Part shown: positions 1,441 through 33,843 of the stretch, piece after piece | How the letters are laid out: each line of letters starts with the position of its first letter | How positions within the stretch are numbered: the stretch's first letter is position 1 | Assembly (NCBI GenBank): GCA_021161425.1 | Contig: JAGHAQ010000041.1 | Span: 1 to 50,053 of the forward strand | DNA: 50,053 bases | Source: Candidatus Tharpella sp. | GTDB taxonomy: Bacteria; Desulfobacterota; Anaeroferrophillalia; Anaeroferrophillales; Tharpellaceae | Direction of reading: 5' to 3' | Translations under genes and position numbers: made by a program | Notes under the pieces: generated by a model | Database searches by the model: none | Seen by the model: the letters and a program-made list of their open reading frames with translations, nothing else | Told to the model about the DNA's origin: nothing

Positions 1441-3396
1441 TTAACTTTTCAGGGCTTCAAGATCCTTAAAGTTTTCCAGGGCTTCAGGGTTGGCCAGGGC
1501 ATCGCGGTTGGTGATCGGTAGGTTGTGAACCATGCGTTTGACTGCGAGTTCAACCTTTTTGCCGCTGATTGTATAAGGAATATCGTTAACCGCAATGATT
1601 TTGGCCGGGACGTGACGCGGGGTTGTGTTTTTACGAATAGTAGTTTTTATCTGTTTTTCGAATTCCGGGGTTAGCTCGACTCCATCATCGAGAACCACGA
1701 AAAGGACAACGCGAACGTCGCTATCTTCCCAATCCTGGCCGATGACGACACTGTCTTTGATGCCCGAGATGGTTTCAACCTGGCGGTAGATTTCGGCGGT
1801 ACCGATACGGACGCCACCGGGGTTCAAGGTAGCATCAGACCGGCCATAAATAATGACGCCACCGGTTTCGGTGATCATGATATAGTCACCGTGGCACCAG
1901 ATATTGTTGTAACGATCGAAATAGGCATCATGGTATTTCTGGTTATCAGGATCATTCCAGAAATAGATCGGCATTGAGGGGAAAGCGGTTGTGCAGACGA
2001 GTTCACCCTTCTCACCGTAAACCGGCTGACCAAAATCATCAAAGGCTTCAACACTCATTCCTAAGCCCCGGCACTGCAGTTCTTCAATATAGACTGGCAG
2101 AATTGGGTTGCCGAGAGCGAAACAAGAGACAATGTCGGTGCCTCCAGAGATCGAAGCGAGATCGACATCTTTTTTGATGTCGCGGTAGACATACTCAAAG
2201 CTTTCGGCTGACAGGGGAGAACCGGTCGAACAGATCGCTTTAATCGCACTTAAATCAAAAGCGGTGCCCGGTTTAAGGCCTGACTGCTGAACTGCAGCAA
2301 TAAATTTGGCGCTGGTACCGTAGACTGAGATTTTCTCATCCTGAGCCAGTTTAAAAGTAGCGCCGCCGTCGGGGTAGAAGGGGGAGCCGTCAAAAAGGAT
2401 GGTGGTTGCGCCAACCGCCAGAGCACTGACGAGCCAGTTCCACATCATCCAGCCGCAGGTTGTAAAGTAGTAGATGCGGTCTTCGCGTTTCAAATCAACA
2501 TGGAAGAGATGTTCTTTTAAATGCTGAATCAGGGTGCCGCCGGTGCCGTGGACAATGCACTTCGGAGTGCCGGTGGTGCCTGATGAGTACATGATGTAGA
2601 GCGGATGATCAAAGGGAAGCTGTTCAAATTCAATCTCGAGATTATCATCTTTTTTGAGAAAATCCTGGTAATGAACAGCGTTGCCGATGGCGCTGATATC
2701 AGCTTTTTCTTCGGTGTAGGGAATCACCACGACTTTCTCGATAGAAGGCAGCGAGCCTAAAATTTCACCGATTTTTTCAAGGGAGCTGAATTTTTTGCCG
2801 TTGTAGGAGTAGCCATTGGCGGTAAAGAGAATTTTGGGTTCGATCTGGCCAAAACGATCAAGAACGCCCTTGATGCCGAAATCAGGCGAACAGGATGACC
2901 AGATAGCGCCGATACTGGTTGCCGCCAGCATGGCGACCACGGTTTCAATCATATTGGGAACAAAACCGGCAACCCGGTCGCCGCATTGAACTCCGGTCTC
3001 GCGTAAAGCCGCCGCCAGACGGGCAACCTGATCATATAATTCAGCGTAACTGATACGGGTTGCGTCCTGATCTTCGCCCTTGAAGACCAGGGCTTCGCGA
3101 TCGTCGCGAAAACGTAAAAGATTTTCGGCGAAATTGAGGCGGGCCCCAGTGAACCATTTGGCTCCCGGCATCTTGTCGCCATCAACCATTATTTCATCGT
3201 AACCCTTGCTGGCGATGATTCCGCCGTATTCCCAGACACTCTCCCAGAAAGCCGCCCGATCATCAACCGACCATTTGTAGAGTTCGTCATAAGAGGCAAA
3301 TTCAAGGCCTTTTTTCTCTTTCAATTGAGCCATTAGACAACTTAAGTTGGAGTTTTTGATACGCTCGGCGGAGGGTTGCCAGAGTGGTGTCTTCAT
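1441..3396 (-). CDS. Acetoacetate--CoA ligase (acetoacetyl-CoA synthetase)
   Basis: LW.PS start, WF.GARLNFAENLL, SSCSPDFG, YSSGTTG.PKCIVH, WMMWNW, SISGGTD, GRSDATLNPGGVRIGTAEIY and SGKKVE motifs. Confidence 0.93.
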   Translation of the reverse strand: MKTPLWQPSAERIKNSNLSCLMAQLKEKKGLEFASYDELYKWSVDDRAAFWESVWEYGGIIASKGYDEIMVDGDKMPGAKWFTGARLNFAENLLRFRDDREALVFKGEDQDATRISYAELYDQVARLAAALRETGVQCGDRVAGFVPNMIETVVAMLAATSIGAIWSSCSPDFGIKGVLDRFGQIEPKILFTANGYSYNGKKFSSLEKIGEILGSLPSIEKVVVIPYTEEKADISAIGNAVHYQDFLKKDDNLEIEFEQLPFDHPLYIMYSSGTTGTPKCIVHGTGGTLIQHLKEHLFHVDLKREDRIYYFTTCGWMMWNWLVSALAVGATTILFDGSPFYPDGGATFKLAQDEKISVYGTSAKFIAAVQQSGLKPGTAFDLSAIKAICSTGSPLSAESFEYVYRDIKKDVDLASISGGTDIVSCFALGNPILPVYIEELQCRGLGMSVEAFDDFGQPVYGEKGELVCTTAFPSMPIYFWNDPDNQKYHDAYFDRYNNIWCHGDYIMITETGGVIIYGRSDATLNPGGVRIGTAEIYRQVETISGIKDSVVIGQDWEDSDVRVVLFVVLDDGVELTPEFEKQIKTTIRKNTTPRHVPAKIIAVNDIPYTISGKKVELAVKRMVHNLPITNRDALANPEALENFKDLEALKS

Positions 3397-5642: not shown

Positions 5643-5676
5643 AAAAAAAGGCAGGCCTGAGGCCTGCCTTTTTTTT
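5643..5676. terminator. Intrinsic terminator
   Basis: AAAAAAAGGCAGGCC-TGA-GGCCTGCCTTTTTTTT. Confidence 0.85.
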
Positions 5677-5981: not shown

Positions 5982-7961
5982 ATGCTGAATTCACTTGATG
6001 TACTGATCATAGGCTTAAGTTTGGCACTTCTGCTCTATGGGAGTTTCAGAAAAATTGCGCGTTGGCGGGTCGGTGAACCCGAAGTTAGGAGTGGCGATGC
6101 CGGCAAACGCTTTGCCTCAATGTTTGCGTCGGTTGTCGGGCACGATCGGATTCTTGAAGAGGCTTGGCCTGGTTATATGCACATCTTCCTCTTCTTTGGT
6201 TTTCTTACCCCCTTTGTCTTTGTCGTTTTTGCCCAACTTCATATCGTGACTTTGACTCCGGCCGCCGCCGGTGGTATTTCTTTGGTTCTCGATCTGATCG
6301 GTGGTTTTGCTCTGGTCGGGCTTATGATAGCTATCTGCCGTCGTTATGTGGTTGAGCCTGAACGTCTTGATGAGCGTGGTAGAGAGGATGGTTTGCTTTT
6401 GGTCTGGCTGCTCTTTATCTTCTTAAGCGGTTTTGTCGTTGAAGGATTGCGTTTGGCGGTAACGACTCCCGAAGGCACTTGGTTTGCCCCCTTGGGTTCA
6501 CTGGTTGCTTTTGCTCTGGCTCCATTAAGTCCCGAAATTGATGCTCAAGTTATTCGTTGGGTCTGGCGCCTGCACTTTTACGCCATCCTGTTGTTGGTCG
6601 GGACCATGCCTTATAACAAACTCTTTCATGTTATTTCCGGCACTCTTAATAACTATTATCGTTCGACCAACCCCAAAGGGGTGGTCAACCTGCTCGATAT
6701 CGAAAACTCCGAGACCTTCGGGGTTGCTCATGTTCATCAATTTACCTGGAAACAGCTGATGGACAGCGATGCTTGTATTCGTTGTGGTCGCTGTCAGGAT
6801 AATTGTCCAGCCTATCTTACAGGTAAACCTTTGACCCCTAAAAAGATGGTTCAGGATATCCGCGAGTGTCTTTATGACAAGAGTGCGATCATCGCCAAAT
6901 GCAAGGCCGAGGGTGAAGATATTACTTGGGGTCTTCCTGATGAGGAGAAACCTTTGTTCGGCGGCTACTTGGCTGAGGATGAGATTTGGGCTTGTACTAC
7001 CTGTCGTGCATGCATGGAGGTTTGCCCAATGTACGTCGAGCATGTTGACAAGATCGTTGATTTGCGGCGTAATCTGGTTCTCATGGAGAGTAGCTTTCCG
7101 TCTGAAGTCCAGCTTGTCTTTAAAAATTTTGAAAATAACAGTAATCCCTGGGGGCTGGGTTGGGCTGATCGTGGTAACTGGGCCAATGATTTAGGGGTTA
7201 CAACCATGGCTGAAAATAGCGATGTCGAACTCCTGCTCTGGATCGGTTGTTCAGGTTCCTTTGATGATCGTTACAAGAAGGTTTCAACCTCTTTTGTCAA
7301 GGTTCTTAAAGCAGCTGGGGTCTCTTTCTCAATTTTGGGTAAGGAGGAAAAGTGTTGCGGCGATTCGGCGCGCAAGCTGGGTAACGAGTATCTCTATCAG
7401 ACGTTGGCCATGGAGAACATTGAGACCCTGAATGGCTACGGCGTCAAAAATATTGTCGTCATGTGTCCGCATGGTTACAATACTTTAAAAAAAGACTATC
7501 AGCAGTTGGGTGGTAACTACAATGTCATGCACCATACCGAGTATCTGGCCCAGCTCATAGCCGATGGCCGGATTAACTTAAAGCGTCCTCTGGTCGCTAA
7601 AGCCGTCTATCATGATTCCTGTTATCTCGGTCGTTACAATGAAATTTACGACCAGCCTCGGGCGATCTTAAATGAAATACCGGGGCTTGAGCTGGTCGAG
7701 ATGGAGCGTCATCATAAACGTGGTTTCTGCTGCGGAGCCGGTGGCGGCCGGATGTGGATGGAGGAGGACATAGGTACTAAGATTAATGACAATCGGGTCG
7801 CACAGGCGCTTGAGAAAGAGCCCGAAATTGCGGTTACGGCTTGTCCTTTCTGTATGGTTATGTTTGAGGATGGTCTTAAATTTCATAATCGGGAAAGTGA
7901 TGTTAAAGTCAAGGATGTGGTTGAACTGGTTGCTGAAGCCCTGGAGGTTGGGGATGTCTAG
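5982..7961 (+). CDS. Membrane Fe-S oxidoreductase, FadF/HdrD-like (probable ETF:menaquinone oxidoreductase, EMO type)
   Basis: NarI-like TM region with His residues, CIRCGRCQDNCP and CTTCRACMEVCP 4Fe-4S motifs, and two CCG domains (EKCCG, YHDSC...FCCGAGGG, TACPFC). Confidence 0.88.
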   Translation: MLNSLDVLIIGLSLALLLYGSFRKIARWRVGEPEVRSGDAGKRFASMFASVVGHDRILEEAWPGYMHIFLFFGFLTPFVFVVFAQLHIVTLTPAAAGGISLVLDLIGGFALVGLMIAICRRYVVEPERLDERGREDGLLLVWLLFIFLSGFVVEGLRLAVTTPEGTWFAPLGSLVAFALAPLSPEIDAQVIRWVWRLHFYAILLLVGTMPYNKLFHVISGTLNNYYRSTNPKGVVNLLDIENSETFGVAHVHQFTWKQLMDSDACIRCGRCQDNCPAYLTGKPLTPKKMVQDIRECLYDKSAIIAKCKAEGEDITWGLPDEEKPLFGGYLAEDEIWACTTCRACMEVCPMYVEHVDKIVDLRRNLVLMESSFPSEVQLVFKNFENNSNPWGLGWADRGNWANDLGVTTMAENSDVELLLWIGCSGSFDDRYKKVSTSFVKVLKAAGVSFSILGKEEKCCGDSARKLGNEYLYQTLAMENIETLNGYGVKNIVVMCPHGYNTLKKDYQQLGGNYNVMHHTEYLAQLIADGRINLKRPLVAKAVYHDSCYLGRYNEIYDQPRAILNEIPGLELVEMERHHKRGFCCGAGGGRMWMEEDIGTKINDNRVAQALEKEPEIAVTACPFCMVMFEDGLKFHNRESDVKVKDVVELVAEALEVGDV

Positions 7962-7962
7962 G

Positions 7963-9030
7963 ATGTCTGAAAAACAAGTTTTTTCCGCGTTGGTTCGGCG
8001 TTTCTGCGGGAGATGGATGTTCTGCCTGTTGTTGGGGGTCGGGTTTCTGATTTTCGTTGGTGACGTTCAGGCGACTATTCCTGAAAATGTAACCCCTGGT
8101 GCCGTAACCACGACGGTGGTTCCGGTGATTCCGGCTGTTACCACCACCGACGGTTTGCTACCGATTCCGGTCGAAGTGCCGAAACCGCGAACCAATGAAG
8201 AGTGTATGAAGTGTCATAAAGAGCCGCACTTGACTTCCGGGCGTCTCGATGGCTCTCTGGCGGTACTGCAGGTTGAGCTTGAACCCTATAAAAAGACTTT
8301 GCACGGTATGAAACTGGAGTGTATCGACTGTCATGAAGATGCCGCCTCAGCCCGCCATTGTCGTAGTGGTTTTCAGAAAGTCAATTGCCTCGCCTGTCAC
8401 TCGAAAATTGAAAATCTTTTTCCTTTCGGTGCCCACGAGCGATTGAAAAAAAAGAATATCAGGATTCCAAAAAGAAAGATGGTTGGTGACAGCTATTATA
8501 AGAGTAAACATGGTAAAGCTTTGCTTGAGGGTAAGGATAACGCCCCCAATTGCTACCATTGCCATACCCGACACTATGTGTTCGGGGCCAAATATAAGCA
8601 GGCAACGGTCAATCGTGCCAATTTGACCGAGACCTGTGGTAGTTGTCATAAGGAACGTCAGATTTCGACCCTGCTTGAGCATGTGACGACTTTTCGTCTT
8701 GAAGCTCACCGTAAGGGTGACATGAGTTTCGATTATGACCGTGGTAATTGTATCGACTGTCATCAGGGTGAAGCTGTGCATGGTCTTAAAGTCAACGAGG
8801 CTCCTTGCGCCCGTTGTCATGATACGAAAATTAAAGTTAAAGGTGTTGCCTTGGTTGGTTTAGGGCCGTTTCACCTCTATCCGAATTATGAAAATCAGTA
8901 TTCGGTTTGGTGTCTGCGCAATTTTTACGGGGTATTAGTGTTACTCCTATTGGTCGGAGCGGGATGTGTTCTCTTTCTCTATATTATGAGACGCTCCGCT
9001 GATCATTATCGTAAAGAAGGGGGCGAGTGA
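7963..9030 (+). CDS. Heptaheme cytochrome c with N-terminal signal and C-terminal membrane anchor
   Basis: Seven CxxCH motifs (CMKCH, CIDCH, CLACH, CYHCH, CGSCH, CIDCH, CARCH). Start moved to ATG 7963, just after the upstream stop. Confidence 0.88.
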   Translation: MSEKQVFSALVRRFCGRWMFCLLLGVGFLIFVGDVQATIPENVTPGAVTTTVVPVIPAVTTTDGLLPIPVEVPKPRTNEECMKCHKEPHLTSGRLDGSLAVLQVELEPYKKTLHGMKLECIDCHEDAASARHCRSGFQKVNCLACHSKIENLFPFGAHERLKKKNIRIPKRKMVGDSYYKSKHGKALLEGKDNAPNCYHCHTRHYVFGAKYKQATVNRANLTETCGSCHKERQISTLLEHVTTFRLEAHRKGDMSFDYDRGNCIDCHQGEAVHGLKVNEAPCARCHDTKIKVKGVALVGLGPFHLYPNYENQYSVWCLRNFYGVLVLLLLVGAGCVLFLYIMRRSADHYRKEGGE

Positions 9031-9665
9031 GTAGGGCTATGTCCAATCCGCATAAAACTAAAAATAAAGATCTGCCTCGTTGGGGGATGGTCATCGATCT
9101 CAATCGCTGTGTTGGTTGTCACACCTGTGAGATTGCCTGCAAGAATGAGAATGATGTTCCTTTAGGGATCTGGCGTAGTTGGGTCAAAGAGATTGAAAAG
9201 GGTAAATACCCCAATGTTGTGCGGGCCTTCAGGCCGACCCTTTGTAATCATTGTGAAAATCCTATTTGTGTCAAGGTGTGTCCGGTCAGTGCCGCTTGGC
9301 AGCGTGAGGATGGAATAGTTATGGTTAATCCACACCTTTGTGTTGGTTGCCGTTACTGTATGTCGGCCTGTCCTTACGAGGTCAGATATATTCACCCCCA
9401 AAAAGGGATGATTGATAAATGTGATTTTTGTAGTGCTCGGGTAGATGCCGGTCTTCAACCGAGTTGTGTTGAGGCCTGTCCAACTAGTGCCCGAATCTTT
9501 GGTGATCTTAACGATTCAAAAAGTGAAGTGGCCAGACTTGTGGCGACCAAGCCGGTTTCAACATTGAAGCCTGAGATGGGTACGGAGCCGAGAGTCTATT
9601 ATATCGGTCTCGATGTTGCGACTTTGGAGATTAGGCGGGAGGCTAAACTGGTATGGGAAAAGTAG
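9027..9665 (+). CDS. 4x[4Fe-4S] electron-transfer subunit, NrfC/PsrB/TtrB family
   Basis: GMVIDL.RCVGCHTCEIAC, CNHCENPICVKVCP, CVGCRYCMSACPY, KCDFC...PSCVEACP and T.PRVYY motifs. Alternative start is ATG 9039. Confidence 0.93.
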   Translation: MSRAMSNPHKTKNKDLPRWGMVIDLNRCVGCHTCEIACKNENDVPLGIWRSWVKEIEKGKYPNVVRAFRPTLCNHCENPICVKVCPVSAAWQREDGIVMVNPHLCVGCRYCMSACPYEVRYIHPQKGMIDKCDFCSARVDAGLQPSCVEACPTSARIFGDLNDSKSEVARLVATKPVSTLKPEMGTEPRVYYIGLDVATLEIRREAKLVWEK

Positions 9666-10552
9666 TTTTTGATGTTCATTATCAGACGACGCTGGCCTTT
9701 CTGATTTCGTACTATTTCTATTTTACGGGGTTAAGTGCCGGATCTTTTATGATCTCCACTCTCTCATATGGTTTTGGCTTGGAAAAATTTAAGCCAGCCA
9801 GTAAAATGGGAGTTGTTGCTGCGGTTTTGTTGCTTCTTATAGCACCACAGTGTCTCTTGATGCAGGTAGCTTGGCCGGTGAAATCTCTCTGGCACAATTT
9901 TCTCTTTCTTAATCCGATCTCAGCCATCTCCTACGGTTCTTTTCTTTTGATTCTCTACCCATTAAACTCCATTATCTATGGTGTGTTTATGTTTAAGGAG
10001 AATAAAAAGTGGACCAAGCTTTTTGGACTTATTGGTATCCCCTTGGCTTTAGCTGTACATGGATATACCGGTTGGATACTTGCTTTAGGCGTGGCTCGGG
10101 ATTATTGGAATACCGGTTTGATGCCGATCGTGTTCCTCTTTTCGGCCATGGTCTCCGGGATCTCAATGATGATCCTTTTTATTATGATCCGTGACCGTTT
10201 CTTTACAAAAGAAAAAGTTATTAATGATGATCTCATTCGCAGTCTTGCCAAGATATTAGGTTGGTTGTTGGTGGTTGACCTCTTCCTGGTTTTTTGTGAT
10301 TACTCAATTTTGCTTTACTCCAAACTTGAAGGTCAGGAAGTTGCGCATTTTATGCTTTTTGGCAAAATGTCGTTCTGGTTTGTGATAGTCGAAAATCTGG
10401 TTGGTAAAGTGATCCCGATGATTATCGTTTTTATTCCGGGGTTGCGTCGTAGTTATTTCTGGCTGATAGTGGCGTCACTGATGAATATGGTTGGTATCCT
10501 GGCGATGCGAATAGTTACAGTTTACGGTGGTCAGGCCTTACCCTTGATGTAG
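9653..10552 (+). CDS. NrfD/PsrC-family integral membrane subunit (about 8 TM)
   Basis: Y.YFTGLSAGSF, HGYTG..L, W...LMP..FLFSA..SG and terminal R....GGQ motifs. Confidence 0.9.
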   Translation: MGKVVFDVHYQTTLAFLISYYFYFTGLSAGSFMISTLSYGFGLEKFKPASKMGVVAAVLLLLIAPQCLLMQVAWPVKSLWHNFLFLNPISAISYGSFLLILYPLNSIIYGVFMFKENKKWTKLFGLIGIPLALAVHGYTGWILALGVARDYWNTGLMPIVFLFSAMVSGISMMILFIMIRDRFFTKEKVINDDLIRSLAKILGWLLVVDLFLVFCDYSILLYSKLEGQEVAHFMLFGKMSFWFVIVENLVGKVIPMIIVFIPGLRRSYFWLIVASLMNMVGILAMRIVTVYGGQALPLM

Positions 10553-10578
10553 ATCGGCTTTGCAAAAGGACTATAAAG

Positions 10579-12882
10579 ATGAAACTAGATCGTAGAAATT
10601 TTATAAAATTAGGAGCCGTTAGCAGTGGGGCTTTGGCTTTGCCGGATCCGATGAAGTTAGCCAAAAAAAAACGTAAGCCATGGAACCGGCAACAGGCTCG
10701 AACTTTAAGAAAATTTCATAACCCTATACCAACGACCTGTGGTTTATGTGAAAACCATTGCGGGCTGATCTCTTATCGGGATGGTGATCGCATCGTAATG
10801 TTACACGGTAATCCGGATCATCCTGTAAATCAGGGCAAACTTTGCGCTCGGGCTTATGGTCAGCTTGACCGGCTTTATGATCCTGACCGGATTCTTACGC
10901 CAAAGCTTCGAGACGGTGAACGTGGTAGTGGTAAGTGGCAGGATATCAGTTGGGCTAAGGCCTATGAAATTATCGCCGAAAAACTTGCTCCTTATGTTGA
11001 AAAACAGGGAGCCGGCCTGACCATTATACAGGGTCGTCAAGAATTACTCAGCGATTCCCTTTTAGAACTTTTTCCTGAATCTCTTGCGGTTGAGGATGGG
11101 TTTGCTCTGAAAGTTAATAGTCTACGTCGGAAACTTTATGGTGTTACCGGATGTCGACGCGATTTTGCCAACAGTCGTTATGTCTTGAATTTTGCTGCAG
11201 ACCCCTACATTAAAGGTGAGGATCTGTTATCTGACATGCGCGAATTGATAAAAGGCCGAATTGAGAATGGTGCCCGCCTGGTAACGGTCGCGGCCCGGTT
11301 AAATAATACAGCGGGACGCAGTGATTCATGGATACCTGTGGCGCCGGCCGATTATGGTACCTTTGCAAGGTCTCTCTCATACTTTATTTTAGACTCTGGA
11401 CTTTACAGTAAAAGTGCTTTGTCAGAGCAAGGTTTAAAGGTTGTTGAATTAAAAGCTTTGTTGCAGAAATATGCACCTGAAAAGGTTGCCAAAGAGATTG
11501 GGGTTGACCCTGAAACGATCAGGAAAATTGCCTCGGATATGGTACGTCGTCCGCAAGCTTTGGCAGTCTATGATGATGAGTTGATTTTAGCACCCGATGG
11601 TTATCAGAGCGCGGCTGCAGTCGAGTTGTTAAATTTGCTTTTAGGCGCAATCGGGCATCCCGGTGGAGTCTATTACTATAGTGAAGATGGTGCTCTGGCT
11701 GACGTAGCAACTTTACTTGACAGCCAAAAAGGGCGTCAGCGGGTTACCTTGGATTGGTTTGCAAACTGGCTTGCTGATAGTGGTAACCGGAGTGCGGTGA
11801 TAAATTATGCTGCAAATCCGGTATTTACGACTTTTAGTGGCCCTTATCCTCATTCAATCTGGCAGAAGTCTCATAAAATTCCGTTCCATCTGGCGATTGA
11901 TACATATTTTAGTGAAACCTCTATTTATGCTGACCTGATTTTGCCGGCAGCAACCGAGCTTGAGACCTTTGCTCTTGCTGATGCTCAGTTAGCCGATGGA
12001 CATAGTGTGATCTCCTTAAGACAACCTGTTTCAGGGCTTGTTGATGAAATTTTTCTTCTGCGTAAGGCCAAGGCGAAGAACTTAGACCTTTTTGCAACTA
12101 AGCGTGAACCGGCATCTGAGTCACGTGATTTCAATCAGATAGTTTTAGAACTGCAACAGCTATTGGCTGGCAAGACTCCGGATTCTGCGTCTCGGGTCAG
12201 CACTTGGCTTAAAGCTAAAATTGCTGGATCTACTTTTGTTAAGGCTGGTATCAGCTGGCAGAAGTTGCAAAAAGATGGTTTCCAAATCTATAAAAAATCA
12301 TCAGACAGTTCGAGATTAAAATTTTCGGTAACCTGCGCAAATTTTGCTCCATTAAATGAAAAATCAGCGGTTCCTGCTCATGATTCGTTTACTCTGGTGC
12401 CATATAGATTACATACTCTTGATAATCTGACCGCCAACAGCAAATATTTAGCTGAATTCAGGCATGATAATCCGCTCTGGATTCATCCTGGGAGAGCTTT
12501 GCGACTCGGCATTAAAGAAGGTGATAAGGTACGGATAGAGACAGCCGTAGGCTCGGTGACGGCTAAAGCCTGGATTACCGAAGCTGTTCATCCTCAATGT
12601 GTGGCCATTGCTTTAGGGTTCGGACATACTGGATTGGGTCGGGTTGCCAAAGCTCAAACAATTGCTAAAAGTGATCCAATGACTAGGTCGTTGCTTTTCC
12701 ACAATCTGTTTTACTTCACTCCTTTTTCTTTGCGGTTAAATTCATGGGATCCTAAGGAACCGGTTTGGTGGCATGAACAGGGCAATGGTGTAGATATAAG
12801 ACGTATATTTAAAGCGACCGCAGATACCCAAAACGCCGGTATATCTAATATTGATACTACTGTGCGGTTGCAGAAGGTCTGA
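10579..12882 (+). CDS. Divergent molybdopterin-oxidoreductase-family subunit (PsrA/TtrA/ArrA-like fold)
   Basis: DRRNFIK twin-arginine motif, CGLCENHC...GNPDHP.NQGKLCAR Fe-S motif, DTYFSET...ADLILPA, and C-terminal LWIHP..A..LGIKEGD.V domain IV. Confidence 0.85.
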   Translation: MKLDRRNFIKLGAVSSGALALPDPMKLAKKKRKPWNRQQARTLRKFHNPIPTTCGLCENHCGLISYRDGDRIVMLHGNPDHPVNQGKLCARAYGQLDRLYDPDRILTPKLRDGERGSGKWQDISWAKAYEIIAEKLAPYVEKQGAGLTIIQGRQELLSDSLLELFPESLAVEDGFALKVNSLRRKLYGVTGCRRDFANSRYVLNFAADPYIKGEDLLSDMRELIKGRIENGARLVTVAARLNNTAGRSDSWIPVAPADYGTFARSLSYFILDSGLYSKSALSEQGLKVVELKALLQKYAPEKVAKEIGVDPETIRKIASDMVRRPQALAVYDDELILAPDGYQSAAAVELLNLLLGAIGHPGGVYYYSEDGALADVATLLDSQKGRQRVTLDWFANWLADSGNRSAVINYAANPVFTTFSGPYPHSIWQKSHKIPFHLAIDTYFSETSIYADLILPAATELETFALADAQLADGHSVISLRQPVSGLVDEIFLLRKAKAKNLDLFATKREPASESRDFNQIVLELQQLLAGKTPDSASRVSTWLKAKIAGSTFVKAGISWQKLQKDGFQIYKKSSDSSRLKFSVTCANFAPLNEKSAVPAHDSFTLVPYRLHTLDNLTANSKYLAEFRHDNPLWIHPGRALRLGIKEGDKVRIETAVGSVTAKAWITEAVHPQCVAIALGFGHTGLGRVAKAQTIAKSDPMTRSLLFHNLFYFTPFSLRLNSWDPKEPVWWHEQGNGVDIRRIFKATADTQNAGISNIDTTVRLQKV

Positions 12883-12904
12883 AAGAATTTTTATTTTAAG
12901 GTGA

Positions 12905-13564
12905 ATGGGTATGAAGATAGACTTTAATTTTATTAAGGATCTGCCTGGCTGGCTGAAAACAAGTCTGGTGATCGGTATTACTATTTCAGTGCTCGTCGGT
13001 TTTTTTGCGTTTGCCCGCTACACTGACAAGGATGATGCCCTTTGCCGATCATGTCATCCTAGCATTCATGAAATGTGGCAAACGTCAAAAACCCACCCAT
13101 CTGACAAGGTGACATGCTATGAGTGTCATACTAAATACATAGAAGCCTTTCCAGAGGCTGGAGAGAGTTTGTATATTCACTATCGAGACAAGATCATTCC
13201 GGAAAATTTTAACAGTGGCAGGAAAGTACTAAATGGAAATTGTCTTCGTTGCCACGAAGATATTCCTAAGTTTAAAGAGGTTAAGAACACTCGAATAGTC
13301 AAAATATCACATGAAAAACACTATAAATCCGAGAAGGTGAAAATTGATGATTGCATGGTCTGTCATAATTCTCTTGCTCATGACAAATATGCGATTGAAA
13401 CCAATCGGCCGCGAATGCAGGGCTGTTTCTTAGGCGAATGTCACAAAGCCGACATCAAAGAGGATCGTTGTGAGTTGTGTCATTTTGTCAAGTTGGTAGA
13501 GGAAGAAAAAGTACTTGAAAAAATTGAAGAAGAAAAAGTACTTGAAAAAATAACTGATAACTAG
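12905..13564 (+). CDS. Membrane-anchored multiheme cytochrome c (NapC/NirT-like N-terminus)
   Basis: N-terminal TM helix, five CxxCH motifs (CRSCH, CYECH, CLRCH, CMVCH, CELCH) and one CX4CH (CFLGECH). Confidence 0.85.
   Translation: MGMKIDFNFIKDLPGWLKTSLVIGITISVLVGFFAFARYTDKDDALCRSCHPSIHEMWQTSKTHPSDKVTCYECHTKYIEAFPEAGESLYIHYRDKIIPENFNSGRKVLNGNCLRCHEDIPKFKEVKNTRIVKISHEKHYKSEKVKIDDCMVCHNSLAHDKYAIETNRPRMQGCFLGECHKADIKEDRCELCHFVKLVEEEKVLEKIEEEKVLEKITDN
13499..13552 (+). repeat. 27-bp in-frame tandem duplication (EEEKVLEKI x2)
   Basis: gaggaagaaaaagtacttgaaaaaatt / gaagaagaaaaagtacttgaaaaaata. Confidence 0.9.
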
Positions 13565-13571
13565 TAGGGCG

Positions 13572-13604
13572 ACGGGGTCGTGTGATTGCATGGCCCCGTT
13601 TTTT
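13572..13604 (+). terminator. Intrinsic terminator closing the redox operon
   Basis: ACGGGGTCGTG-TGATTG-CATGGCCCCGT stem with G-U pairs, followed by a T tract. Confidence 0.7.
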
Positions 13605-13654: not shown

Positions 13655-14845
13655 ATGTTGAAAAATCAACAATATGATCTCCTGAAAGGCCTTAAGGTGT
13701 TGGATCTTAGCCGTCTGTTACCAGGGCCTTTTTGCAGTATGGTGCTGGCTGATTACGGGGCTGAGATTTTAAAGATCGAAGCTCCGGGAGAAGGTGACTA
13801 TCTGCGTAGTTGGGCCCCTCTGGTTGATGGGGTCAGCGCTTTTTTTCTGGCTGTTAACCGTAATAAACGTTCTTTGACCCTTAACCTCAAAGAGGAAGAG
13901 GGGCGGGAACTTTTTAAAAAACTTCTGCTTGAGTATGATGTCGTTCTTGAAAGTTTCCGTCCGGGAGTTATGGAGCGGCTTGGTTGTGGTTATCAAGAGC
14001 TTGCGGCGCTCAAACCAAATCTGATCTATTGCTCAATCAGCGGTTATGGGCAATCCGGGCCCCAGGCCTTAAAGGCCGGTCATGATATTAACTATATGGC
14101 CGAATCCGGGGTTTTAAATACGACCTCAAGTCGTGAGATTTCAGCTATTTCCGGGATCCAGGTCGCCGATGTGGCAGGCGGCGCTCTTTATGCTGTCAGC
14201 GCCGTACTGGCAGCCTATGTCAAGGTCTTGAAAGGGGGACGGGGGGCCTGTCTTGATATTTCGATGACTGATGGTTTGGTTAGTATGTTGCCCCTGCTTT
14301 CGGCCTATCACTATACTCTGGGTTTGGAACCCGGTCCCGATACGACGATGTTCAATGGTCAGTTGGCCTGTTACCATATCTATCGGACTCGCGATGGTCG
14401 GGAGATTGCTTTAGGTGCTCTTGAGAAGAAATTCTGGCAGAATTTCTGTCGAGTTGTTGAACGTGATGATCTTCTTAACGGCGATCATCATGATCTGGCC
14501 CGCCAGGATGAACTTAAAAAAGAGCTTGCGGTAATTTTTGCGGCTCGTGATGCTGATCAGTGGCCGACTCTGCTGGCTGGTCACGATACCTGTTGTGAAG
14601 TGCTTAGAAATATGACTGAAGTCCACGCTGATCCTCATTTTCAGGAGCGTGGCATGTTCTGGCGACTGCCTCTTGAAAATGGCGGTGATCTTCTGCAGAC
14701 TAACTGTGCGGTTATGGTAGATGAGAATAAACCGACTCAGCATCGGGCTGCACCAAAACTTGGTCAGCATACCGACCAGATACTTAATGATTTGGGGTAT
14801 GATCAGAATACAATTTCGGACCTGCGAGAGCGTGGAGTGATTTGA
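13655..14845 (+). CDS. Family III CoA-transferase (CaiB/BaiF, AMACR-like branch)
   Basis: LDLSRLLPGPFC...LAD.GAE..KIE.P..GD, NRNKRS, E.FRPGV..RLG and GHDINY motifs. Confidence 0.92.
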   Translation: MLKNQQYDLLKGLKVLDLSRLLPGPFCSMVLADYGAEILKIEAPGEGDYLRSWAPLVDGVSAFFLAVNRNKRSLTLNLKEEEGRELFKKLLLEYDVVLESFRPGVMERLGCGYQELAALKPNLIYCSISGYGQSGPQALKAGHDINYMAESGVLNTTSSREISAISGIQVADVAGGALYAVSAVLAAYVKVLKGGRGACLDISMTDGLVSMLPLLSAYHYTLGLEPGPDTTMFNGQLACYHIYRTRDGREIALGALEKKFWQNFCRVVERDDLLNGDHHDLARQDELKKELAVIFAARDADQWPTLLAGHDTCCEVLRNMTEVHADPHFQERGMFWRLPLENGGDLLQTNCAVMVDENKPTQHRAAPKLGQHTDQILNDLGYDQNTISDLRERGVI

Positions 14846-14881
14846 AAAAAATTTAATTCGAAAGAACCGTAAATATTTATT

Positions 14882-14935
14882 AAATTACGAAAGACGCGAA
14901 AAAACCTTTAGCGTCTTTTACCTCTTTCGTAGTTT
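14882..14935. repeat. Small intergenic inverted-repeat element (related copy at 31696-31739)
   Basis: AAATTACGAAAG...CTTTCGTAGTTT with inner AAAGACGC/GCGTCTTT. The core CGCGAAAAAAC is shared with the 31.7 kb copy. Confidence 0.45.
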
Positions 14936-15004
14936 AAAAGAAAAGTCTGGAAAAGTTTTGATAACCCGCTTGCTTCCGGCTACGCTGGATTAAGGATGGA
15001 GCTT

Positions 15005-16189
15005 ATGTGTAAAGAAGTTGTAATAGTCAGTGCTTTGCGAACTGCAATTGGTAATTTTCAGGGAGGTCTCTCCTCTCTTACGGCTACTGAACTTGGTGGT
15101 CTGGCAATCAACGGAGCGATCGAGAGGGCGGGCATCGACAAAGCTATGGTCGATGAAGTGCTTATGGGTAATGTGTTGCCCATCGGTTTGGGTCAGAATC
15201 CCGGCCGTCAAGCCATGATTAAGGCCGGTTTGCCGATGGCCGTCGGGGCTATAACCGTTAACAAGGTTTGTGGATCCGGACTTAAAACGGTGATGTTGGC
15301 GGAACAGGCGATAAAATCCGGTGATGCTGAGATCATTGTTGCCGGCGGTATGGAAAGCATGAGCAATGTTCCTTACTACATGCCTGGTGCCCGAGGTGGT
15401 ATGCGCATGGGCAACGGCCCGATGGTTGACGGTATGGTACATGACGGACTCTGGGATGTGGTTAACGATTACCATATGGGTTATACGGCCGAATTGGTCA
15501 GCAAAAAATTCTCTATTACCCGCGAAGTGATGGATCGCTTTTCCGTTGCTTCCAATGAAAAAGCTCTGGCCGCGATCGAAAATGATTATTTCGCCGATGA
15601 GATTATGCCGGTATCTATAACCCCACGGCGGGGTGATCCTTATGATTTTAAGGTTGATGAAGGGCCCCGAGCTGCCACCATGGAGGCATTGGCCAAATTG
15701 CGGCCGGCTTTTGACCGGAATGGTATTGTGACCGCCGGTAATGCTTCAAAAATCAGTGATGGTGCCAGTTGTCTGTTGGTGATGTCGGCAGCTAGAGCTG
15801 CCGAACTTAAACTTGAGCCTTTGGCCAGGATTGTGGCTCAGGGGGCGGCCGGTGTGGCTCTTGAAGATGTGCTGGTAGCGCCGATAGACTCGATTCCGAA
15901 AGTCTTGGCCAAAGCCGGTTTAAAGATAAATGATATCGATCTGCATGAGATTAATGAAGCTTTTGCAACCTCTAGTGTGGCTATTATCAAGGAGCTTGGG
16001 ATTGATCCGGAAAGGGTTAATCTGAACGGTGGAGCTGTGGCTCTTGGTCATCCGATTGGTTGTTCCGGAGCCCGGGTGTTGACGACTTTGATCTATGCTC
16101 TGCGTCGTCAGGACAAACGTTACGGTATGGCTTCACTCTGTCTTGGCGGTGGTGAAGCGGTTTCAATGATTATTGAGAGCCTGGCTTAG
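15005..16189 (+). CDS. Acetyl-CoA C-acetyltransferase (thiolase) 1
   Basis: NKVCGSG, TAGNAS.ISDGA, INEAFA, GHPIG.SG and LCLGGG motifs. ATG 15005 follows GGAG; the ORF track starts at 14996. Confidence 0.95.
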   Translation: MCKEVVIVSALRTAIGNFQGGLSSLTATELGGLAINGAIERAGIDKAMVDEVLMGNVLPIGLGQNPGRQAMIKAGLPMAVGAITVNKVCGSGLKTVMLAEQAIKSGDAEIIVAGGMESMSNVPYYMPGARGGMRMGNGPMVDGMVHDGLWDVVNDYHMGYTAELVSKKFSITREVMDRFSVASNEKALAAIENDYFADEIMPVSITPRRGDPYDFKVDEGPRAATMEALAKLRPAFDRNGIVTAGNASKISDGASCLLVMSAARAAELKLEPLARIVAQGAAGVALEDVLVAPIDSIPKVLAKAGLKINDIDLHEINEAFATSSVAIIKELGIDPERVNLNGGAVALGHPIGCSGARVLTTLIYALRRQDKRYGMASLCLGGGEAVSMIIESLA

Positions 16190-16238
16190 GTTAAGAGAAG
16201 AATAATATTATTTCAGTCTATACTTTAAGGAGAGGAAC

Positions 16239-17519
16239 ATGCGTGAAGTAGCTATTGTCAGTGCCACCCGGACCGCAATTGGGACCTATGGTGGAAGTTT
16301 AAAGGATATCCCGGTGGTTGAAATGGGCGCCACGGTAATTCGCAATGTAATGGAAAGAGCTGGTTGTCGGCCGGTAATGAACAAAGCAGTCGTCGCTGCC
16401 GGTCCTGAAGCTCTTAAGGATAAAGGATGTCCGGTCGAGGAGAAATACAGCAATTGGGACAGCTCCCTGACCGAACTTCAGGTTGATGAAGTGGTTATGG
16501 GAAATGTCGTCGGGGCTGGTCAAGGGCAGAATGTGGCTCGACAGGCGATGATTCATGCCGGTATTCCGCGTGAGGCCGGTGGTTACACCATAAATAAGGT
16601 TTGTGCATCAGGTATGAAAGCGGTGGCCTTGGCAGCTCAATCAATTGCCCTTGGTGAAGCCGAAGTGATGATCGCCGGGGGCATGGAGAATATGAGTCGG
16701 GTTCCCTATGCGATGTCGTCGGCGCGTTGGGGTGCTCGTATGGGTAATGTCGATGTGGTCGATCTGATGGTTCATGATGGGCTCTGGGAAATCTTCTATG
16801 GTTATCATATGGGTTTGACAGCTGAAAATATTGCCGACCTTTATGGTATTTCCCGGCTTGAACAGGATGAACTCGGAGCTTTGAGTCATCAGCGCGCCCG
16901 CAAGGCGATTGCTGATGGCATATTTGCCAAAGAAATTGTCCCGGTCATGATTCCCCAGCGTAAAAAAGATCCGATCGCTTTTGCGATTGATGAACGGCCG
17001 ATGGATACGTCGGTCGAAAAGATGGGGAAATTACGTCCGGCTTTCAAAAAAGATGGAACTGTAACCGCTGGTAACGCTTCCGGTATTAATGATGCGGCCG
17101 CAGCTCTGTTGCTTATGACGCCGGAAAAAGCGGCGGCTATGGGACTTAAAGTAAAAGCTGTCATCAAAGGTTTCCAGGCGGGGGGACTTGACCCGGCTTA
17201 TATGGGGTTAGGACCGATTCCATCCATTAAACGATTGCTTAAGCGTCTTGATATGGGGCTTAATGCAATTGACTATTTTGAATTAAATGAAGCTTTTGCC
17301 TCGCAGGCTATCGCCTGTGTGCGGGAATTGAAAATTGATATGGAGCGTACCAATATTTATGGTAGCGGTATCTCTTTAGGACATCCTATCGGATGTTCTG
17401 GAGCCCGGATTCTGGTTACCCTGCTGAACGTATTGGAACAAAATGATGCCGAACGTGGTCTTGCCTCTCTCTGTATCGGTGGTGGTCAGGGTGCGGCAAT
17501 GGTTATTGAAAGACGGTAG
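16239..17519 (+). CDS. Acetyl-CoA C-acetyltransferase (thiolase) 2, with N-terminal insertion
   Basis: NKVCASG, TAGNASGINDAA, LNEAFA, GHPIG and LCIGGG motifs. Confidence 0.95.
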   Translation: MREVAIVSATRTAIGTYGGSLKDIPVVEMGATVIRNVMERAGCRPVMNKAVVAAGPEALKDKGCPVEEKYSNWDSSLTELQVDEVVMGNVVGAGQGQNVARQAMIHAGIPREAGGYTINKVCASGMKAVALAAQSIALGEAEVMIAGGMENMSRVPYAMSSARWGARMGNVDVVDLMVHDGLWEIFYGYHMGLTAENIADLYGISRLEQDELGALSHQRARKAIADGIFAKEIVPVMIPQRKKDPIAFAIDERPMDTSVEKMGKLRPAFKKDGTVTAGNASGINDAAAALLLMTPEKAAAMGLKVKAVIKGFQAGGLDPAYMGLGPIPSIKRLLKRLDMGLNAIDYFELNEAFASQAIACVRELKIDMERTNIYGSGISLGHPIGCSGARILVTLLNVLEQNDAERGLASLCIGGGQGAAMVIERR

Positions 17520-17550
17520 TATTATCATTATTTAATTAGTTAGGAGATCG

Positions 17551-18408
17551 ATGATTATGGAGATCAAAAAATTCGGAGTGGTTGGTGCCGGTCAGATGGG
17601 TAACGGGATTGCTCAGGTTGCAGCACAAGCCGGTTTGCAGGTGGTAATGCACGATATCGCCGAGAAGTTTGTTGAGTACGGTATGTCGGTAATTAAGAAA
17701 AATTTGCAGCGTTCGGTTGATAAGGGTCGGATGGAACAGGCTGATATGGACGCGGTTCTCGGTCGAATTACGACAACGACTGAGCTGGCCGCCATGAAGG
17801 ATGTTGATATCGTTGTCGAAGCGGCAACCGAGAATGAGAAAATTAAACTCGATATCTTTGCTCAGCTTGATGCAATTTGTCCTAAAGATGCCATTTTGGC
17901 CTCCAACACTTCTTCTATTTCGATTACTAAGATTGCAGCGGCAACCAAGCGTCCGGAAAAGATGATCGGTATGCATTTCATGAATCCGGTTCCGGTTATG
18001 AAACTGGTTGAAGTGATCAAAGGGTTGGCGACTAATGATGAAACCTATGACACGGTTGTCGAACTCTCGAAAAAACTTGGTAAAATCCCTTGTCAAGCCA
18101 ATGATTTTCCAGGCTTTATTGCCAATCGTATTCTTTTGCCGATGATCAATGAAGCCGTCTATTGCCTCTTTGAAGGGGTCGGTAAGCCGGAAGATATTGA
18201 TAACGTAATGAAACTTGGCATGAATCATCCGATGGGGCCCCTGGCCCTGGCCGATCTGATCGGGCTTGATACCTGCTTGGCGATTATGAATGTTCTGCAT
18301 GAGGGCTTAGGCGATTCCAAATATCGTCCCTGTCCTTTGTTGAAAAAATATGTCGATGCCGGTTTTTTTGGGCGCAAGAGCGGTCGTGGGTTCTACGATT
18401 ACAGTTAA
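17551..18408 (+). CDS. hbd: 3-hydroxybutyryl-CoA dehydrogenase
   Basis: GAGQMG.GIA, SNTSS, GMHFMNP, GFIANR and NHPMGPL.LAD.IGLD motifs. Confidence 0.95.
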
Positions 18409-18429
18409 TAGATTTGAGGGAGAAGAATT

Positions 18430-19569
18430 ATGGAATTTGTATATACTGATGAAGAGAGAATGATGTTACAGATGGCCCGGAATTTTGCCGAAAAAGAGGT
18501 GAAACCGATAGCCAAAGAGGTTGATAAAGAGCATAAGTTCCCAGCCGATAACGTTAAAAAGATGGGTGAACTCGGTCTGATGGGAGTCAGTGTCCCGGTT
18601 GATTATGAAGGTTCCGGGATGAGCAATATCTGCTATGCCATTGCCATGGAAGAGATCTCTCGTCACTGTGCTTCAACTGGGGTTATTATGTCGGTGAATA
18701 ACTCTCTGGCTTGTGATCCCGTAAAGATTTTTGGTAACGAAGAGCAGAAAAAGAAATATCTGGCCGATATGGCCAGTGGCCGAAAATTGGGTTGTTTGGG
18801 ATTGACCGAATCCAATGCCGGATCCGATGCTGCTAATCTTGCCACCACCGCCGTTCTTGATGGTGATGAGTGGATCATTAATGGCCGTAAAATATTTATT
18901 ACCAATGGTAATGAAGCTGACTACTGTGTGCTTATCGCTGCAACTGATAAGAGTCAAGGACATCGAGGTATCAGCGCCTTTATTGTCGATCTCGATAACC
19001 CCGGATTCAGCGTCGGTACATTGGAAGACAAGCTTGGAATTAGAGGCAGCTCAACTGCAGAGTTGGTTTTTGAAGATTGCCGCATACCTAAGGAGAATCT
19101 TCTCGGTGAGGTTGGAAAGGGTTTTAAGGTTGCCTTGACAACGCTCGATGGCGGTCGTATCGGGATCGCTTCACAAGCTTTGGGAATCGCCCGGGCTTCG
19201 ATTGAAGATGCTGCAGCCTACGCCAAGGAGAGGGTTCAGTTCGGCAAGCCGATTGCCAAACTGCAGGCGATTCAGTGGATGCTGGCTGATCTTTCGACTC
19301 ATTATGAAGCCGCCAGATTGCTTACTCACCGAGCCGCTTATCTTAAAGATCAGGGCCAGCCTTTTGGTAAAGAAGCGGCTATGGCAAAATTGATGGCAGC
19401 CGAAACCGCCATGAAAGCCGCCACTCAGGGGATTCAGATTCTCGGTGGTTATGGCTATACTACGGATTATCCGTTGGAACGCTATTTCCGGGATGCCAAG
19501 ATTACCGAAATCTACGAAGGTACCAGTGAAATTATGCGGTTGGTTATTGCAACTAATATTTTAAAGTAG
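18430..19569 (+). CDS. Short-chain (butyryl-CoA type) acyl-CoA dehydrogenase
   Basis: LTE..AGSD, K.FITNG, KLGIRGS.T, LDGGRIGIA, ERVQFG and IYEGTSEI (catalytic Glu). Confidence 0.95.
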   Translation: MEFVYTDEERMMLQMARNFAEKEVKPIAKEVDKEHKFPADNVKKMGELGLMGVSVPVDYEGSGMSNICYAIAMEEISRHCASTGVIMSVNNSLACDPVKIFGNEEQKKKYLADMASGRKLGCLGLTESNAGSDAANLATTAVLDGDEWIINGRKIFITNGNEADYCVLIAATDKSQGHRGISAFIVDLDNPGFSVGTLEDKLGIRGSSTAELVFEDCRIPKENLLGEVGKGFKVALTTLDGGRIGIASQALGIARASIEDAAAYAKERVQFGKPIAKLQAIQWMLADLSTHYEAARLLTHRAAYLKDQGQPFGKEAAMAKLMAAETAMKAATQGIQILGGYGYTTDYPLERYFRDAKITEIYEGTSEIMRLVIATNILK

Positions 19570-19605
19570 TTGATAGATGTTAATTTTTATTAGGAGGGAA
19601 GTATT

Positions 19606-20385
19606 GTGAAGATTGTTGCCTGTATCAAACAGACTTTTGACACCGAAGCCAAGATTGTCGTTGGTGGTGATGGTCAGATCTCTGATGAAGGGGTTAACCT
19701 GATCGTTAATCCTTACGACGAGTATGCCGTCGAAGAGGCGATCCGGACCAAAGAGAAAGATGGTGGTGAGGTCGTGGTTGTAACTGTCGGTGGAGATAAG
19801 GCTCAGGAAGCCCTGCGTTATTGTCTGGCTATGGGTGCTGACCGTGCTGTTCTGATTAATGATCCGGCTCTGGCCGGAGCTGATAGCCGTGCGGTTTCTG
19901 TCGCCTTGGCAAAATTGTTGAGCGAAAAGGAAGCCGGTTTTGACATCATCTTTACAGGTAAAGAGTCGGTTGATGATGGTGTGGGCCAAGTTCCTTCCCG
20001 GCTCGCAGAAAAATTAGACTTGGCTCAGGCCAATGTTGTGACCGCTTTCGAATTAAGTGACGGTAAAGCGACAGCAACCCGTGAAATTGATGGTGGCAGT
20101 GAAACCTTAGAACTTGTGCTGCCGGCTCTGATCAGTGCCCAGAAAGGTCTCAATGAGGTTCGTTATCCCTCTCTGCCCGGTATTATGAAAGCCAAACGCA
20201 AACCGCTTGAGGTTCTTGCTCTTGGCGATTTGGGATTGAGTGTTGACGATGTCGCCTCTAAAGTTGAGTTGGTAGCAGCCGAATTGCCGCCGGCCCGTAA
20301 AGCCGGACAGCGCTTGACCGGTGAGGTTGATGAAGTGGTTGCCAAATTGGTTCAGTTGTTACAAGATGAAGCCAAAGTTATCTAA
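19606..20385 (+). CDS. etfB: Electron transfer flavoprotein beta subunit
   Basis: KQT.DT, NPYDEYAVEEA, LAMGAD.A and N..RYPSL.GIMKAK.KP motifs. Confidence 0.95.
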   Translation: MKIVACIKQTFDTEAKIVVGGDGQISDEGVNLIVNPYDEYAVEEAIRTKEKDGGEVVVVTVGGDKAQEALRYCLAMGADRAVLINDPALAGADSRAVSVALAKLLSEKEAGFDIIFTGKESVDDGVGQVPSRLAEKLDLAQANVVTAFELSDGKATATREIDGGSETLELVLPALISAQKGLNEVRYPSLPGIMKAKRKPLEVLALGDLGLSVDDVASKVELVAAELPPARKAGQRLTGEVDEVVAKLVQLLQDEAKVI

Positions 20386-20400
20386 GGGGAGATTATTAAA

Positions 20401-21363: not shown

Positions 21364-21396
21364 GTAAAACCTGTTTTTAAAAGTGAAGATCAATTG

Positions 21397-21436
21397 CCCC
21401 CCGTTGTCTGCCAAATGGCTGCTGCGGGGGTTTTTT
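21397..21436 (+). terminator. Probable intrinsic terminator after etfA
   Basis: CCCCCG...CGGGGG stem followed by TTTTTT. Confidence 0.55.
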
Positions 21437-21470
21437 ATGCCTTTATTTGTTGACATTAAGCCCTTTTTGC

Positions 21471-21486
21471 CAGCTCACGTTAACTG
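21471..21486. promoter_or_regulatory. Palindromic operator, copy 3
   Basis: CAGCTCACGTTAACTG, 2 mismatches, flanked by TTGACA hexamers at 21450 and 21494, upstream of the second acyl-CoA dehydrogenase and icmAB. Confidence 0.55.
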
Positions 21487-21622
21487 TTTTTAGTTGACAA
21501 GAAATATGATTTGGTGTACGCAAGACCACGTTTCGTCTATGGATTTATATGCTCTTGGGTTTGTTTGATTAAAAGTTTTTGTTTGCTTCCGGCATCGCCG
21601 GGTCAGGGAATTGGTGGGGAAA

Positions 21623-22771: not shown

Positions 22772-22848
22772 TTGTCAGTGGTCAGCTGCCAGTGTTTTTT
22801 ATTGACCACGACTTTATTACCGGTTAAACCGGTTCAGGGAGAGATTAG

Positions 22849-24525: not shown

Positions 24526-24569
24526 TTTTACGAAAAAATCAAGTTTTAATGAGATAAAGGATTTGACCA

Positions 24570-24965
24570 ATGAGCGATAAAAAAATTAAAGTATTGATTG
24601 CCAAGCCCGGTCTTGATGGTCACGATCGTGGAGCCAAGATTATCGCCCGCGGATTGCGGGATGCAGGGTTTGAGGTGGTTTACACTGGACTGCATCAGAC
24701 TCCCGAAGAGATAGTTGCAACTTCGATTCAGGAAGATGTCGATGTTATCGGGGTCAGCAGTCTGGCTGGTGCCCATATGTATCTTTTCCCCAGAATTATT
24801 GAGCTCTTGGTTGAAAAGGGAGCTGATGATATTCCGGTGTTTGGCGGCGGTATCATTCCCGAAGATGATATTCCTGTATTGCTGAAAGCCGGGATCAAAG
24901 CGGTCTTTACGCCCGGCAGTCCGGTTGATGAGACGATTAACTGGATTCGTGAAAATGTAGTTTAA
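24570..24965 (+). CDS. icmB: Acyl-CoA mutase small subunit, B12-binding
   Basis: [23 protein letters not shown] and F.PG motifs. Confidence 0.85.
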
Positions 24966-33842: not shown

Positions 33843-33843
33843 G

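Follow-up and report, generated by a model that had tools for sequence, protein, structure and literature searches.

The exit route of the high-potential electrons from acyl-CoA dehydrogenases (Acd) is settled for one syntroph, in which the electron-transfer flavoprotein (ETF):quinone oxidoreductase EMO works towards a membrane formate dehydrogenase; it is not settled for organisms that oxidise fatty acids but lack sulfate reduction. According to the accessible text of bioRxiv 10.64898/2026.08.18.745454, the EMO of Syntrophus aciditrophicus uses the proton-motive force to transfer electrons from ETF to methylmenaquinone on the periplasmic side, and its distal heme site faces the periplasm; the enzyme is reversible, and runs backward in crotonate-grown S. 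aciditrophicus (PMC8805022). As to quinone:cytochrome systems, the accessible part of Duarte et al. (PMC6303296) ties the cofactor-less molybdenum (Mo)-family proteins QrcB and ActB to NrfD proteins of 10 helices. Here we describe a six-gene module in 50,053 nt of Candidatus Tharpella sp. DNA (contig JAGHAQ010000041.1; hereafter the window, from whose start all positions are counted), taken from an assembly that is 63% complete. The module places an EMO and a heptaheme cytochrome next to an NrfD complex with an eroded Mo-family subunit, and we consider it probable that the whole serves as an outward, quinone-mediated electron outlet of acyl-CoA oxidation.

All six open reading frames (ORFs) lie on the plus strand. 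The first (5982..7961) encodes an EMO/FadF-type ETF:quinone oxidoreductase with a NarI-like membrane domain, two cubane (Fer4) and two CCG cluster domains. It is followed by genes for CytA, a heptaheme cytochrome c that has a hydrophobic stretch at its N-terminus and a membrane helix at its C-terminus (7954..9030); FeS, an NrfC/TtrB-like ferredoxin subunit with four Cys clusters and without a twin-arginine (Tat) motif of its own (9027..9665); a short NrfD/PsrC-type quinone-reactive membrane subunit of 299 residues (9653..10552); a Mo/W-bisPGD-family subunit (10579..12882); and CytB, an N-terminally anchored hexaheme cytochrome c (12905..13564). Successive intergenic spacings are -8, -4, -13, +26 and +22 nt. 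The longest ORF for CytA runs from 7786, but translation probably begins with an ATG at 7954, preceded by GGAGG, or at 7963. Two terminator-like hairpins enclose the genes, one at 5643..5675 (no strand assigned; T runs on both sides; z -5.15) and one, on the plus strand, at 13571..13600 (with a T run; z -4.26). For each, none of 200 shuffles folded equally well; a consensus terminator scan listed the first and left out the second. An earlier note on this DNA had described six tight or overlapping genes between two terminators, including a heptaheme and a 5+1-heme cytochrome, and this layout held throughout, CytA having seven CxxCH motifs and CytB five plus a CFLGECH (CX4CH).

The first gene product has the features by which EMO/EtfD proteins are recognised, namely the NarI-like, cubane and CCG domains with His ligands, and gene linkage to ETF and Acd. 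Its best match in the PDB is 9OJN (E 1e-114), it retains the CPHG motif known from the S. aciditrophicus EMO, and His67, His198 and His216, which we matched to the published heme ligands by order and spacing, are invariant in 23/23 sequences. Homologs of CytA were found in 49 of 401 genomes of the phylum. Of 20 distant CytA stretches, taken from the 24 weakest among the matches listed, 19 have EMO as a direct neighbour (one stretch is cut), 18 contain ETF genes and a single one includes the NrfD module. Further, in one locus (L146, genome G175) CytA is fused in front of EMO through the CytA C-terminal helix. The earlier note had placed both cytochromes with a Qrc/Ttr-like complex; this stands for CytB, which travels with FeS-NrfD-Mo, but heptaheme CytA belongs with EMO. 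The likely location of CytA is the periplasmic side of EMO, where it would offer a second outlet or a heme link between the two halves of the module. A PDB search with CytA gave no match and an Atlas search returned generic c7/c3 clusters only, while a complex prediction of CytA with the EMO membrane domain scored 0.00, its controls likewise failing to fold, and weighs neither way.

The distant loci, the fusion and the periplasmic orientation of the distal heme site (bioRxiv 10.64898/2026.08.18.745454, accessible text) are what one would expect if EMO reduced CytA directly across the membrane, the two forming one supercomplex with CytB and the NrfD module in which NrfD would feed or drain quinone in the manner of Qrc. 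We regard this as unlikely: according to the same text the characterised EMO reduces methylmenaquinone, the window EMO keeps the same His ligands, and contact between CytA and the NrfD module is a supposition. A bolder proposal, which we hold to be conceivable though doubtful, is that EMO and CytA constitute an undescribed ETF:cytochrome c oxidoreductase, widespread in Desulfobacterota and in two orders coupled directly to an NrfD module whose Mo cofactor was lost in yet another, independent event; it would act as a transmembrane wire lifting acyl-CoA electrons to periplasmic or extracellular acceptors (Fe(III), sulfur, partner cells).

Two further arrangements of EMO were observed. A second EMO+CytA type, ordered EtfA-CytA-EMO-EtfB, lies beside large flavin-oxidoreductase-like genes in several families (L136, L221, L231, L232, L234). 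Elsewhere (L170:6579-13689, G260:C14), a Cys-less, Arr-related Mo-FeS-NrfD operon has an EMO gene just downstream, and is possibly an independent EMO pairing of the same kind.

The module is conserved well beyond Tharpella. Among the 27 genomes of its own order, all six genes occur in the same order on one contig in 14 (twice in G008); 12 are cut by contig ends and carry compatible pieces, no conflicting arrangement being seen, and one (G015) has none. NrfD proteins from this order bear the names Ca. Anaeroferrophillus wilburensis and Ca. Tharpellaceae. A profile search of 401 genomes of the phylum pointed to the Deferrisomatales, represented by 21 genomes. Of these, 18 gave a match, with all six genes in order in 11 (frameshifted in G417) and a cut by contig ends in four more; the whole-locus view covered all but five genomes. 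The module in this order mostly sits between Acd-EtfB-EtfA and Acd-mutase genes, and G046, whose proteins are named Deferrisoma camini, reads Thl-Hbd-(gap)-Acd-EtfB-EtfA-EMO-CytA-FeS-NrfD-Mo-CytB-Acd-mutase. The genome with the fusion, G175, carries NrfD, Mo, CytB and CytA-EMO followed by ETF, Acd and mutase genes. We stress that kin are not independent, so that the synteny evidence amounts to two orders and a few families. The reading put forward in the earlier note depended on the EMO linkage being conserved elsewhere, and the synteny search finds it kept across the own order and in Deferrisomatales.

Each half of the module also occurs apart from the other. FeS-NrfD-Mo-CytB is found without this EMO-CytA pair in six families (f4, f12, f25, f29, f38 and f104), split NarI/HdrD-like genes come after it in f46 and in a single f12 genome, and f38 genomes have EMO+CytA and FeS-NrfD-Mo-CytB at separate loci. 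From these observations, we view the operon as an EMO+CytA unit that became joined to a quinone:cytochrome unit.

The Mo-family subunit combines an intact N-terminal region with eroded cofactor domains. Its R5, R6 and F8 (Tat motif) and C54, C57, C61 and C89 (FS0 cluster) are invariant in 19/19 sequences, and all four FS0 cysteines are intact in the EMO-linked Deferrisomatales proteins. The His-x3-Cys loop of PhsA and of Arr-like and Ttr-like proteins is missing from 11/11 own-order, 5/5 EMO-linked Deferrisomatales and five further sequences; 25 of 26 ligand-bearing references carry the loop Cys, the exception being DmsA with a Ser, and the ligand Cys of PsrA and of ArrA aligns with non-Cys residues. 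Outside the FS0 domain, ligand-bearing enzymes share 61 conserved columns; of these, 54% are retained in the own order, 61% in Deferrisomatales, 71% in QrcB (three proteins over the curated cut-off), 85% in other Cys-less modules and 88% in the defining set (a circular value), while conserved columns of the FS0 domain are kept at 90%. When one family at a time was left out, the own order scored lowest in 5/5 runs (0.47-0.52), against 0.60-0.67 for QrcB and 0.57-0.77 for the held-out families. Changes are also seen in the DPR, PGTD and domain IV motifs, and these differ among genomes. A confident structural model of the subunit (pLDDT 80.6) has PsrA (2VPW) and ArrA (6CZ7) as its closest folds (TM 0.71). 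No gene for the TorD chaperone was found in the locus, and one was found in just 8/27 own-order genomes. One genome, G210, has EMO-CytA-FeS-NrfD-CytB with a 21-bp gap in place of the Mo gene. Without the Mo-ligating Cys, the subunit is likely a scaffold that has lost its pterin cofactor.

Other Cys-less proteins came to light in these searches. Stand-alone, Tat-bearing Cys-less paralogs of the Mo subunit occur in Deferrisomatales, with no FeS or NrfD neighbour detected (L152, L153, L169, L185:8787-11261). A wider FeS-NrfD-Mo-CytB family without the Cys ligand (L043, L086-L101, e.g. L088:10513-12744), some members of which lie beside 12- or 16-heme cytochromes, may consist of Mo enzymes without a protein ligand. 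Mo-family subunits lacking both the ligand and the FS0 cysteines (L045:5462-11365, L104:7817-10234, L142, L143) are a possible case of further loss within the same Mo-subunit clade; one of these loci adjoins a gene that we take to be cytochrome cd1-like.

Phylogenetic analysis separates the Mo subunit from QrcB. A quick tree under a mixture model (50 of 77 rows, with long branches and several rows of odd composition, and so to be read with care) included, as Arr-like and Ttr-like references, the best hidden Markov model (HMM) matches under the curated cut-offs, PhsA as an annotated record, and no characterised ActB. The Mo subunits of the own order join those of Deferrisomatales (SH-aLRT 96), within a larger clade (100) that includes uncharacterised Cys-bearing enzymes, while QrcB and related proteins fall with the Arr-like ones (100) and the Ttr-like and Phs/Psr proteins are separate. 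An AU test on 24 of the 77 rows (LG+G4) rejects a topology in which the Mo subunit, QrcB and a QrcB/ActB-like row make up a single clade (p=1.08e-6). The subunit scores 202.8 bits with the QrcB HMM against a cut-off of 440, which is passed in 0/27 own-order genomes, and falls far under those for PhsA (232/694), ArrA (135/1600) and TtrA (97/1750); 251 genomes searched for the PhsA family at E 1e-190 gave no match. The earlier note would have been undercut by nesting within a characterised Psr/Ttr/Arr clade with an intact active site; instead, the tree places the subunit elsewhere, and the ligand loop is absent. The Mo subunit accompanies a short NrfD, unlike QrcB and ActB, as would fit a Mo site lost on a separate occasion.

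That NrfD lies outside the QrcD/HybB branch and scores 50.6 with the QrcD HMM (cut-off 570). Its S90 and R286 are invariant within the own order, and fall in columns where QrcD and Escherichia coli NrfD have Ser and Arg (accessible text of PMC8076601; residue numbering not matched to the papers). A count of eight helices would rest on length and alignment, since a hydropathy scan gave six at the threshold used. Mean identity is 55% for the Mo subunit, 80% for FeS and 86% for NrfD, the Mo subunit evolving fastest. The sixth heme motif of CytB aligns with a canonical CxxCH in 3/4 relatives without EMO linkage and in 4/4 QrcA/ActA-like proteins. The sole match for CytB in a PDB search was PsaD, which we judged spurious. 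A tandem duplication of nine residues at the CytB C-terminus (13500-13556) is absent from most relatives.

Quinol/quinone redox chemistry is usually the task of an NrfD-ferredoxin pair, and subunits without a signal are exported by means of a partner's Tat signal in DmsAB and Hyd-2. In the outward reading that we favour, EMO would take electrons from reduced ETF to menaquinone, the FeS-NrfD pair would reoxidise the quinol and hand electrons to CytB, and CytB would pass them on to periplasmic acceptors. Since the Mo-binding Cys is lost, the Mo subunit would be a cofactor-less scaffold and an electron wire to the periplasm rather than a terminal reductase, and because the large subunit has no catalytic site the anchored hexaheme CytB would be the natural exit. 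Retention of the Mo subunit may be explained by export, as the only Tat motif of the pair is that of the Mo subunit, which would carry the signal-less FeS subunit out, with FS0 remaining as a relay or as a docking site for CytB. The conduit proposed in the earlier note, from acyl-CoA oxidation through quinone to periplasmic cytochromes, gains support from the conserved EMO linkage and from the separate placement of the ligand-less Mo subunit; its quinone route and direction we infer.

Several observations weigh against this outward reading. The note had set the module directly upstream of Acd and ETF genes, but the linked acyl-CoA genes (13655..24965, plus strand), which accompany the module in relatives too, encode a CoA-transferase III, two thiolases, 3-hydroxybutyryl-CoA dehydrogenase, Acd, EtfB, EtfA, Acd and the two subunits of a B12 acyl-CoA mutase; the first Acd starts at 18430, 4.9 kb past the module, with the CoA-transferase, thiolases and dehydrogenase in 13655-18408 and, in the Tharpella genome, the hairpin at 13571-13600 in between. 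The held-out Ttr family scores 0.57, so that general divergence accounts for part of the erosion of the Mo subunit, and G210 also has a stand-alone Cys-less, Tat-bearing paralog that could act in trans. A missing Cys alone is no proof of cofactor loss, because AioA and IdrA bind Mo-bisPGD without a protein ligand (accessible part of PMC10100899); moaA is present in 24/27 own-order genomes, that of Tharpella included; and the wider Cys-less family may still bind the cofactor, given that 85% of its conserved columns are kept. In the accessible part of Speth et al. (PMC9213671), a molybdopterin complex is recorded in no more than 3/8 Tharpellota metagenome-assembled genomes, a mismatch with the near-universal module found here if those genomes belong to the family of Tharpella. 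Lastly, because EMO is reversible (PMC8805022), the outward direction is not fixed.

The availability of Mo cofactor synthesis and the existence of ligand-less Mo enzymes, together with the folds closest to PsrA and ArrA, the intact FS0 and Tat motifs and the sulfur-compound respiration predicted for this class (accessible text of bioRxiv 2021.03.22.436540), could also mean that the Mo subunit is still catalytic: as a Psr/Ttr-like terminal reductase without a protein ligand to Mo, it would reduce a sulfur compound with electrons delivered from EMO by way of quinol. We think this very improbable, as its cofactor-domain residues are more eroded than those of QrcB, with the DPR, PGTD and domain IV motifs variable, its gene is absent from the G210 operon and a terminal reductase would not need CytB downstream. 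Reversibility bears on a further alternative, by which periplasmic donors would supply CytB, NrfD, menaquinone and then EMO/ETF for reduction of enoyl-CoA (enoyl-CoA respiration or chain elongation). The functional analogue Qrc runs inward (PMC6303296, accessible part), as EMO does in crotonate-grown S. aciditrophicus; but the genes beside the module amount to a set for activation and beta-oxidation, including an acyl-CoA mutase, and Deferrisoma is reported to reduce Fe(III) (PMC10052568, accessible part), which needs an outward route. An inward flow seems to us improbable, and we retain the outward outlet as the preferred reading.

As to what such an outlet might connect, the Tharpella genome has a match to the menaquinone pathway, and complex I with a Rieske/cytochrome b/octaheme cluster, as in the Tharpellota described in the accessible part of PMC9213671, which states that the terminal acceptor is unknown. 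A GSU2203-family decaheme and a GSU2204/MtrB-type porin, both over curated cut-offs (L240:797-3725, G000:C2), are a possible extracellular electron conduit in this lineage; the decaheme with the MtrB-type porin, the Rieske/cytochrome b/octaheme cluster and octaheme proteins are candidate acceptors. Deferrisoma is described as an Fe(III) reducer (PMC10052568, accessible part).

Elsewhere in the window, a divergent acetoacetate-CoA ligase gene (1441..3396, minus strand) is frequently 5' of the module in relatives as well. The chemoreceptor gene at 3758-5620 encodes 557 residues, compared with about 710 in several relatives, and the DNA past its stop resembles, in one frame, what is presumably the start of a hemerythrin domain; this suggests a recent truncation. 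Two apparent 2-oxoacid:ferredoxin oxidoreductase sets, one with a 558-residue flavoprotein-ferredoxin fusion, lie at 25475-27917 (plus) and 31779-36133 (minus), and a 2518-residue protein flanked by two helicase-like ORFs (36344-49429) resembles an inserted defence or mobile island. A promoter scan of the window gave 32 sites against 23.5 expected, none usable. One metatranscriptome (0.07 word share) yielded 51 scattered contigs, none of them 99% alike, and no listed contig bridged module genes.

Neither this operon nor a heptaheme partner of EMO turned up in searches of the open literature, although closed papers and supplements may mention EMO-linked cytochromes; the accessible text of bioRxiv 10.64898/2026.08.18.745454 mentions no EMO-linked heptaheme cytochrome, nor does that of Hao et al. 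(PMC7082340), who describe a FeS oxidoreductase-EtfAB cluster. Since no QrcB passes the cut-off in 27 genomes, the 'Qrc' and 'Psr' calls for Anaeroferrophillalia in the accessible text of bioRxiv 2021.03.22.436540, with whose genes ours were not matched, may partly be this module. The operon is a concrete candidate route for acyl-CoA electrons; it gives EMO a heptaheme partner and suggests that the Mo site was lost here separately from QrcB, and its cultured carrier, the iron reducer Deferrisoma camini, makes our reading directly testable.

All parts of the module come from known families, and comparison with the described systems suggests that it works like Qrc or alternative complex III yet belongs to neither. 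With QrcABCD it shares NrfD, a four-cluster ferredoxin, a ligand-less Mo-family subunit and an anchored penta/hexaheme cytochrome, as well as the quinone-to-cytochrome function, which is described for Qrc (accessible parts of PMC6303296 and PMC13059093) and predicted here. However, qrcA-B-C-D has the order cytochrome-Mo-FeS-NrfD (also seen in L047 and L052) and the module FeS-NrfD-Mo-cytochrome, NrfD of Qrc has 406-407 residues rather than 299, and the module is linked to EMO, CytA and ETF genes; judging from the trees and profiles, the resemblance is convergent and not a matter of membership. Alternative complex III fuses the Mo-like and FeS parts in ActB and has ActC and ActF, whereas in the module FeS and Mo are encoded apart and a single short NrfD is present; the module has neither the qrc order, as the earlier note had said, nor the ActB fusion. 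The EMO/EtfD of S. aciditrophicus (SYN_02638) and of Mycobacterium smegmatis (9OJN) share its domains, three His ligands, CPHG motif and ETF/Acd linkage, but here EMO has a heptaheme neighbour and is encoded together with an NrfD module, in place of a membrane formate dehydrogenase as partner. PsrABC, TtrBCA and ArrAB(C) share the closest folds, a short NrfD, a ttrBCA-like FeS-NrfD-Mo order, Tat and FS0; the module differs in the missing Mo-ligating Cys, a ligand that ArxA also has (PMC10100899, accessible part), in its separate clade, in its extra cytochromes and in having no TorD in the locus. Cys-bearing FeS-NrfD-Mo-TorD operons, as on a plasmid of Azoarcus sp. KH32C and in L172, fall in the same Mo clade (SH-aLRT 100) and have the same core order; unlike the module, they keep His-x3-Cys and TorD and are without EMO or CytB.

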